NCBI RefSeq assembly: GCF_003334335.1
Contig: NZ_QOWQ01000052.1
Reading direction: 5' to 3' (one strand)
Length of the DNA: 20,350 nucleotides
Source of the DNA: Escherichia coli
Lineage (GTDB): Bacteria > Pseudomonadota > Gammaproteobacteria > Enterobacterales > Enterobacteriaceae
The notes below the pieces were generated by a model. That model worked only from the letters and a program-made list of their open reading frames with translations, was not told the origin of the DNA and did no database searches. Below, piece by piece: positions 15,700-15,752 of this stretch (position 1 is the stretch's first letter; the number at the start of each line of letters is the position of its first letter). The translations under genes and the position numbers were made by a program.

Positions 15700-15752
15700 A
15701 AATCAAGTTTCCTTGCGCGTTGGCGCGTAAAATAGCGCGCAAGCTGATTTGA

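Follow-up and report, generated by a model that had tools for sequence, protein, structure and literature searches.

An imperfect inverted repeat in the allS-selU spacer of Escherichia coli encloses the selU core promoter and may serve the allS message as a 3' stem-loop

The short spacer between allS and selU in Escherichia coli contains a GC-rich palindrome, and the locus raises the question of which of the two transcription units the palindrome serves. It was viewed in the original prediction as a possible weak terminator or attenuator, or as an RNA structure controlling read-through into selU. Unless stated otherwise, coordinates refer to the window, i.e. the whole stretch of 20,350 nucleotides that was analysed (assembly GCF_003334335.1, contig NZ_QOWQ01000052.1). 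The window is the reverse strand of the K-12 allantoin region, and positions in NC_000913.3 (K-12) were obtained as 546994 minus the window coordinate. The upstream gene allS (14773-15699, plus strand; stop codon TAA at 15697-15699) encodes a LysR-type activator, and the downstream gene selU (mnmH/ybbB; 15768-16862, plus strand) encodes the tRNA 2-selenouridine synthase. Both genes were identified from the list of open reading frames (ORFs) and from the RefSeq annotation of matching E. coli genomes, and the homologues of SelU are named MnmH. They lie on the same strand, separated by a spacer of 68 bp in which the ORF list contains no leader ORF.

The perfect inverted repeat consists of CTTGCGCG (15712-15719) and its exact reverse complement CGCGCAAG (15736-15743), placed 16 nt apart. 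The predicted GC-rich palindrome with 8-bp arms was therefore confirmed by exact reverse complementarity, with its true end at 15743 (the original prediction, at 15742, was one base short). The distances given at that time also held: the left arm begins 13 nt past the allS stop codon, and the selU ATG (15768) follows 24 nt past the right arm, for which about 25 bp had been given. The inner GCGCG/CGCGC hairpins that had been described within the palindrome do exist, and are trivial and add little, because CGCG is present three times within 25 nt (at 15716, 15724 and 15736) and is its own reverse complement, so that any copy pairs with any other. The pairing energies are -8.6 kcal/mol for copies 1:2, -8.6 kcal/mol for copies 2:3 and -16.0 kcal/mol for the extended 1:3 stem. 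Perfect inverted repeats of this kind (8-bp arms, loop of 20 nt or less) occur 12 times in the window (8 distinct) against 6.8 +/- 3.4 in dinucleotide shuffles, and roughly 0.02 would be expected in a 68-nt spacer; this chance check is weak, and the perfect 8-bp palindrome is unremarkable taken alone.

The palindrome is the GC-rich upper part of a wider imperfect repeat, which is more unusual. In the minimum free energy (MFE) structure, the 5' strand of this hairpin (15703-15722, plus strand) begins with a basal stem (15703-15709), which an internal mismatch of 2 nt (15710-15711) separates from the perfect arm CTTGCGCG; three wobble/A-U pairs (15720-15722) follow. On its 3' strand (15733-15752, plus strand; also derived from pair counts) the partners of these wobble/A-U pairs (15733-15735) come first and the perfect arm CGCGCAAG next, and a mismatch of 2 nt (15744-15745) divides this arm from the basal stem GATTTGA (15746-15752). 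The stem of 8 perfect and 3 wobble/A-U pairs starts 4 nt (basal stem) or 13 nt (perfect arm) past the allS stop codon, and the loop measures 16 nt between the perfect arms or 10 nt within the extended stem. The 41-nt core folds at -16.0 kcal/mol (z = -1.6; equalled by 14 of 200 shuffles), and the wider repeat 15703-15722 / 15733-15752 folds at -22.4 kcal/mol (z = -2.6; equalled by 3 of 200). The minus strand of the same repeat reaches only -14.3 kcal/mol (z = -0.6), an asymmetry that arises because several of the stem pairs are G-U.

The palindrome element was located by megablast, a search that strongly diverged copies would escape, in 5405 of 5426 complete E. coli genomes. It is single-copy (median one place per genome across the 5405 genomes) and does not occur in many copies per genome, as is the case for REP/BIME elements. 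The 81 nt from 15690 to 15770 are unchanged in 4127 of the 5405 genomes that carry the element. The A15764T change, which is common in E. coli, was seen in JJ1887 and LF82 and is present in at least part of the 1278 genomes that are non-identical over 15690-15770; it lengthens the U-run before the selU ATG from UUUU to UUUUU.

The loop of the hairpin contains GCGTAAAAT (15725-15733, plus strand), which is the -10 region of selU, made up of GCG and the hexamer TAAAAT (15728-15733). Like sigma-70 -10 elements, the hexamer carries A as its second base and T as its sixth. This element, which is conserved across the Enterobacterales whatever the upstream gene, had been overlooked in the original prediction, where mapping of the selU transcription start site (TSS) was proposed as a check. 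Such a site is listed in the SMRT-Cappable-seq data: in Supplementary Data 2, operons b0503 and b0503|b0502 have their TSS at 531253 on the reverse strand of NC_000913.3 (PMC6131387). This single dataset places the selU start at A15741 of the window (plus strand). The site belongs to the palindrome's right arm (CGCGC-A-AG), follows the hexamer by 7 nt and gives the selU mRNA a 5' UTR of 27 nt. The same table scores b0503 as 'same' as the RegulonDB operon, a unit apart from allS (PMC6131387). An independent selU promoter, mapped elsewhere than the palindrome, had been named as an outcome that would speak against the predicted structure; an independent selU promoter is indeed mapped, though within the palindrome and not elsewhere. 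The selU start coordinates were absent from the supplementary lists of Ettwiller 2016, which are probably incomplete, and the supplement of Romero 2014 held no entry for this start site.

The b0503|b0502 transcript, which shares the selU start site, is novel relative to RegulonDB (PMC6131387), and selU is therefore co-transcribed with the downstream gene ylbG (15741-17349). The ylbG ORF runs from a GTG at 16942 and the annotated coding sequence occupies 16978-17349.

Between the -10 hexamer and the start site lies the discriminator AGCGCGC (15734-15740, plus strand; 6/7 G/C), which makes up most of the right arm of the palindrome. The discriminator is GC-rich in most other lineages, and AT-rich in Morganella. 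By inspection, no -35 hexamer is present: at spacers of 16-19 bp, at most 1/6 positions match TTGACA. A consensus promoter scan returned no site in the spacer on either strand, and so also missed the selU promoter, which has no -35. In place of the -35, a conserved AAAATCAA is found exactly 21 bp upstream of the -10. It belongs to the motif AAAAATCAA (15698-15706, plus strand), directly past the allS stop codon, which stands out in alignments A1 and A2 by its unvarying columns and constant spacing and spans positions -43 to -35 relative to the selU start site. From its conservation, AAAAATCAA is probably a promoter-upstream element, which either resembles an UP element or stands in for the absent -35. 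Its TCAA doubles as the base of the hairpin 5' strand. ATCAA at -39 to -35 occupies the place of the promoter-proximal half of a site centred at -41.5; a full FNR/CRP class II site was considered and rejected, since the distal half matches TTGAT at only 1-3/5 positions and is not conserved.

Downstream of the start site, the putative Shine-Dalgarno sequence GAGG (15751-15754, plus strand) lies 13 nt before the selU ATG. It is part of a (T)TTGAGG motif that is invariant or near-invariant in lineages with allS upstream, where TTTGAGG is found 14-15 bp past the hexamer, and is probably the selU ribosome-binding site. The first two bases of GAGG sit within the basal stem of the hairpin.

For comparison between species, 80 loci encoding SelU relatives were retrieved and the sequences upstream of each start codon were compared. 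The motif GCG(N0-2)[TC]A[ACG]AAT was present 28-70 nt upstream of the selU ATG in 41/41 Enterobacterales loci as well as in the window, in the forms GCG followed by TA(A/C/G)AAT or CACAAT. The chance of finding it in 110 nt is about 0.007 per locus, as estimated from its information content. The motif is kept with either allS or purK as the upstream gene. In most Citrobacter species and in E. albertii, purK precedes selU and the flanks cannot be aligned with those of E. coli, but the motif is retained; it is all that the two contexts share, and in the purK context the -10 is found without a flanking palindrome.

A different GC-rich hairpin, GCCGGGGA...TCCCCGGC, lies immediately upstream of the selU -10 in the purK-context loci (L008, about 2900-2950, and the equivalents in L006 and L010-L018). 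It also lacks a U-run, and a U-less hairpin beside the selU promoter therefore recurs in a different sequence context. The same loci (E. albertii and most Citrobacter; L006, L008, L010-L018) encode a SelU N-terminus beginning MNDGTDY, and where allS is upstream the N-terminus is MQ(E/D)... and the 5' UTR is of another type. The allantoin cluster therefore appears to have been inserted between purK and selU, and in doing so to have supplied or remodelled the selU leader and the first ~8 codons.

The allS-context lineages comprised Escherichia, two Citrobacter, UBA5654, two Superficieibacter, a Salmonella-like assembly and three metagenomic contigs. All of them carry (A)AAATCAA right after the allS stop codon. 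In all of them, too, ATCAA stands exactly 21 bp upstream of the -10 and the bases between vary (window 15698-15733; loci L007, L009, L019, L027, L028 and L085-L088). This fixed spacing points to a constraint at the DNA level, and the A-tract can be read as UP-like. The selU core promoter thus has a defined and unusual fixed architecture: ATCAA-N21-TAnAAT, with no -35 and a GC-rich discriminator. Two rearrangements near this region were also observed: an IS1 insertion in AAAAATCA just past the allS stop codon of E. coli AVS0247 (L084; window about 15698-15706), and the loss of allS in an Escherichia lineage (L003), with the junction 8 nt before the allS stop codon. The selU promoter region is whole in both.

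The hairpin does not qualify as a canonical terminator. It lacks the U-tract of such terminators (5 or more U in 8 nt, 0-2 nt from the stem), the first 8 nt holding 3-4 U; the E. coli U-tail scores -2.2 to -2.4, which 25-36% of window positions also reach. The loop of 10-16 nt exceeds the 3-8 nt of intrinsic terminators. A consensus terminator scan found none in the spacer, in agreement with the earlier remark that a clean T-run is missing. The Term-seq tables for three growth conditions (LB at two densities and M63 glucose) list no 3' end for allS, selU or positions 5312xx (Adams et al. 2021, PMC7815308). This outcome of the 3'-end check that had been proposed says little, because in those media AllR is expected to keep allS, a gene of the allantoin regulon, repressed, and allS is probably unexpressed.

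Rfam searches with E-values up to 10 gave no match overlapping 15700-15767. Elsewhere in the window, two sRNAs exceeded their gathering scores, STnc480 (3740-3806, minus strand; 87.6 bits) and ES036/CssrF (3832-3874, minus strand; 38.1 bits). Both sites lie in the convergent spacer of ORFs 2948-3733 (plus) and 3961-5112 (minus), and are adjoined by a perfect palindrome with 12-bp arms (3888-3899 / 3904-3915). A sub-threshold match to psRNA2 (16804-16975, minus strand; 31.1 bits against a gathering score of 65, E = 3.5e-05) covers the selU 3' end and the selU-ylbG spacer. The AllZ sRNA, derived from the allR 3' UTR at K-12 533,629-533,863, corresponds to window 13131-13365 (minus strand) and overlaps the allR 3' end and the start of the gcl-side ORF (PMC8175672).

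Conservation of the fold was uneven between lineages. Citrobacter FP75 and C. werkmanii form stems of 10-12 bp from different bases (TCATCCT/AGGATGA), with z = -3.4 and -2.2 respectively, and the metagenomic lineage L087 folds with z = -2.3, CCUC pairing there with GAGG. Lineages L086 and L088 reached z = -1.2. The Salmonella-like locus carries a 7-bp palindrome (CTTTGCG/CGCAAAG) with its register shifted by 2. Folding was no better than that of shuffled sequences in the Salmonella-like locus (z = +0.45), UBA5654 (-0.45) and Superficieibacter (-0.7 and 0.0); in total, four of about eight lineages had no significant fold. In the E. coli register, pairing is seen in 67.5-74% of alignment cells, and sliding the partner columns lowers this share to 31-43%, a comparison in which the structure tested was taken from the E. 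coli sequence and is favoured over the slid controls. When only the bases that differ between E. coli and Citrobacter were permuted, the share of trials with an equally stable fold was 1.5% for E. coli and 0.6% for Citrobacter FP75. The covariation score was reached by 6/500 and 17/500 shuffles, and calibration of the tool indicated that kinship alone can give such scores; covariation is suggestive and unproven.

The GCGCG core is the least conserved part of the stem (it pairs in only 2-5/12 sequences) and the basal helix is better conserved. The TCAA and TTGA conserved at the stem base may each have another cause, the promoter element and the ribosome-binding site respectively. Polymorphism within E. 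coli is too low for a covariation test: besides A15764T, common and outside the stem, there is one change compatible with G-U pairing (C15738T, an Escherichia variant that turns a G-C pair into G-U) and one disruptive change (G15717A in LF82, which breaks a pair and is uncompensated). We conclude that selection probably acts to some extent on the hairpin in allS-sense RNA within the Escherichia-Citrobacter part of the tree, though this is unproven.

The palindrome is real, and the explanation that we favour, with a confidence somewhat above even, is an allS 3' stem-loop overlapping the selU core promoter. The spacer would then hold two signals: the selU core promoter (-10 at 15728-15733, discriminator AGCGCGC, start at A15741) and, wrapped around it, the imperfect inverted repeat 15703-15722 / 15733-15752. 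With no more than 68 bp of spacer available, the stem-loop would have had to enclose the promoter. Since the selU mRNA begins in the right arm, only RNA started upstream, i.e. allS transcripts, holds both arms. The allS read-through RNA is predicted to form a hairpin (about -22 kcal/mol) starting 4 nt past the allS stop codon, and this hairpin may serve the allS message as a 3' stem-loop, acting as a leaky, non-canonical terminator and/or as a barrier to 3' exonucleases. On read-through RNA, the hairpin would also base pair with the sequence flanking and entering the selU Shine-Dalgarno, which would make such RNA a poorer template for selU than the promoter-derived mRNA, unless the basal stem were opened by a ribosome terminating at the allS stop codon.

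The main alternative is that only the promoter architecture matters: a CGCG-rich spacer and discriminator, together with TCAA and TTGA, would be kept for the promoter and for ribosome binding, and the resulting self-complementarity would be an accidental by-product of promoter composition, leaving the hairpin functionless in RNA. We hold this to be possible but doubtful. Three self-complementary CGCG copies within 25 nt account at no cost for most of the complementarity of the 8-bp arms, perfect inverted repeats with arms of that length are not unusual (12 in the window, as against the shuffled expectation given above), four of about eight lineages lack a significant fold, the covariation statistics fall within the range given by relatedness alone, and the Term-seq tables record no 3' end here. 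Against it, hairpins of different sequence recur in Escherichia, Citrobacter and L087 (z from -2.2 to -3.4), permuted lineage-specific bases rarely fold as stably (p = 0.015 and 0.006), and the strand asymmetry of folding is not expected from an effect of composition. Nor does the promoter need a palindrome, because the purK-context -10 is not flanked by one. The attenuation of selU that had been suggested originally, in which the 1:2, 2:3 and 1:3 pairings would decide the passage of RNA polymerase into selU, now seems very unlikely, even though the three pairings are mutually exclusive (-8.6, -8.6 and -16.0 kcal/mol) and the element lies between two genes of the same strand. The mapped start site largely refutes an attenuator of selU's own transcript: the start lies inside the right arm, and the selU mRNA therefore lacks the left arm (15712-15719) and can form none of these hairpins. 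The spacer, moreover, has no U-run, no leader ORF and no Rfam family match, and the alternative pairings follow trivially from the repeated CGCG and are unconserved outside Escherichia. Of the original suggestions, a weak terminator or a structure in read-through RNA remains tenable, the hairpin being real and contained in RNA running from allS into selU.

Two further alternatives concern the DNA itself. The dyad could be an operator at which a dimeric DNA-binding protein, AllS being one candidate, covers the -10 and represses selU; its centre (15727/15728) coincides with the upstream border of the -10 hexamer, where repressors typically bind, and the gene for a LysR-type regulator is immediately upstream. 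We give this little credence: the half-sites differ from genus to genus, Escherichia having CTTGCGCG, the Salmonella-like locus CTTTGCG and Citrobacter TCATCCT, and the dyad relies on G-T appositions, which pair only as RNA of one strand. AllS is reported to act at the allD upstream region, and the palindrome's 7-mer words CTTGCGC, GCGCAAG, TTGCGCG and CGCGCAA are absent from that region at the start of the window, which is a weak test; a literature search gave no report of a selU regulator or a selU promoter. Equally far-fetched to us is a bidirectional promoter, in which the near-symmetric GCGCG-TAAAATA-GCGCGC would hold a second -10, TATTTT (the reverse complement of 15729-15734), driving antisense transcription into allS. 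TATTTT has the A at position 2 and the T at position 6, the GC-rich blocks on both sides would offer a similar discriminator to each strand, and the principle of divergent promoters is set out in bioRxiv 10.1101/2020.01.31.928960. Against this, the SMRT-Cappable-seq operon table, a method that selects transcripts >1 kb, lists no forward-strand K-12 start near 53124x-53126x, the promoter scan was empty on both strands, and the symmetry is unconserved in other genera.

The 3' stem-loop of allS, as favoured here, resembles intrinsic terminators and other 3' stem-loops in being a GC-rich sense-strand structure a few nt past a stop codon, preceded by an A-rich run and followed by a stretch that contains U. 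It differs from them in having no U-tract within 8 nt of the stem, a loop of 10-16 nt and no 3' end in the Term-seq tables, and in that its loop and right arm carry a working promoter. As with REP/BIME elements, a GC-rich imperfect palindrome stands in a short spacer past a stop codon and could protect the upstream mRNA, but here it is single-copy and has a promoter embedded; we take its sequence to be unlike the REP consensus. The frd terminator of E. coli reportedly overlaps the promoter/attenuator of ampC. In both cases the same few tens of bp, in a very short spacer, carry the signal that ends one unit and those that start the next. At frd-ampC the shared hairpin is downstream of the ampC start and attenuates ampC, whereas at allS-selU the start site is inside the hairpin, so the mRNA of the downstream gene escapes it.

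On the side of the promoter, a good -10 (TAAAAT) followed by a GC-rich discriminator (AGCGCGC), an A-rich tract at about -40 and a gene product that acts on tRNA recall the ppGpp/DksA-sensitive sigma-70 promoters of the rrnB P1 type, a likeness drawn from the bases only; unlike these, the selU promoter has no -35 match, and the Morganella discriminator is AT-rich. The locus also has a feature of translational coupling hairpins, since bases just past the stop codon of the first gene pair beside the ribosome-binding site of the second, with its flank, and a ribosome terminating at 15697-15699 is predicted to melt 15703-15709. Here, in contrast, only two bases of GAGG are paired, and selU has its own promoter.

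A more elaborate version, speculative and in our view improbable, would make the spacer a module with two modes. The promoter would always supply selU mRNA that is hairpin-free and translated without hindrance; upon induction of the allantoin regulon, allS read-through RNA would mask the flank of the selU ribosome-binding site through the conserved long-range helix 15703-15709/15746-15752 and the inner stem, to be opened by the ribosome at the allS stop codon. If this were true, SelU synthesis from read-through RNA would be translationally coupled to AllS synthesis, and the selenium modification of tRNA would be tied to anaerobic purine/allantoin catabolism.

What the locus displays is ordinary biology, a compact overlap of a gene-end hairpin and a promoter, and the main value of the finding is for annotation. 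Signals of 3' ends and of coverage in this spacer need to be read with a promoter firing inside the hairpin in mind, and a step in RNA-seq coverage there reflects the start site and is not evidence of attenuation. The regulation of selU was found nowhere described; its core promoter is now defined and could be checked for control by growth rate or ppGpp. If the hairpin is functional, the allS-selU spacer would be a tidy case of two unrelated transcription units sharing 50 bp, and would leave current understanding unchanged.
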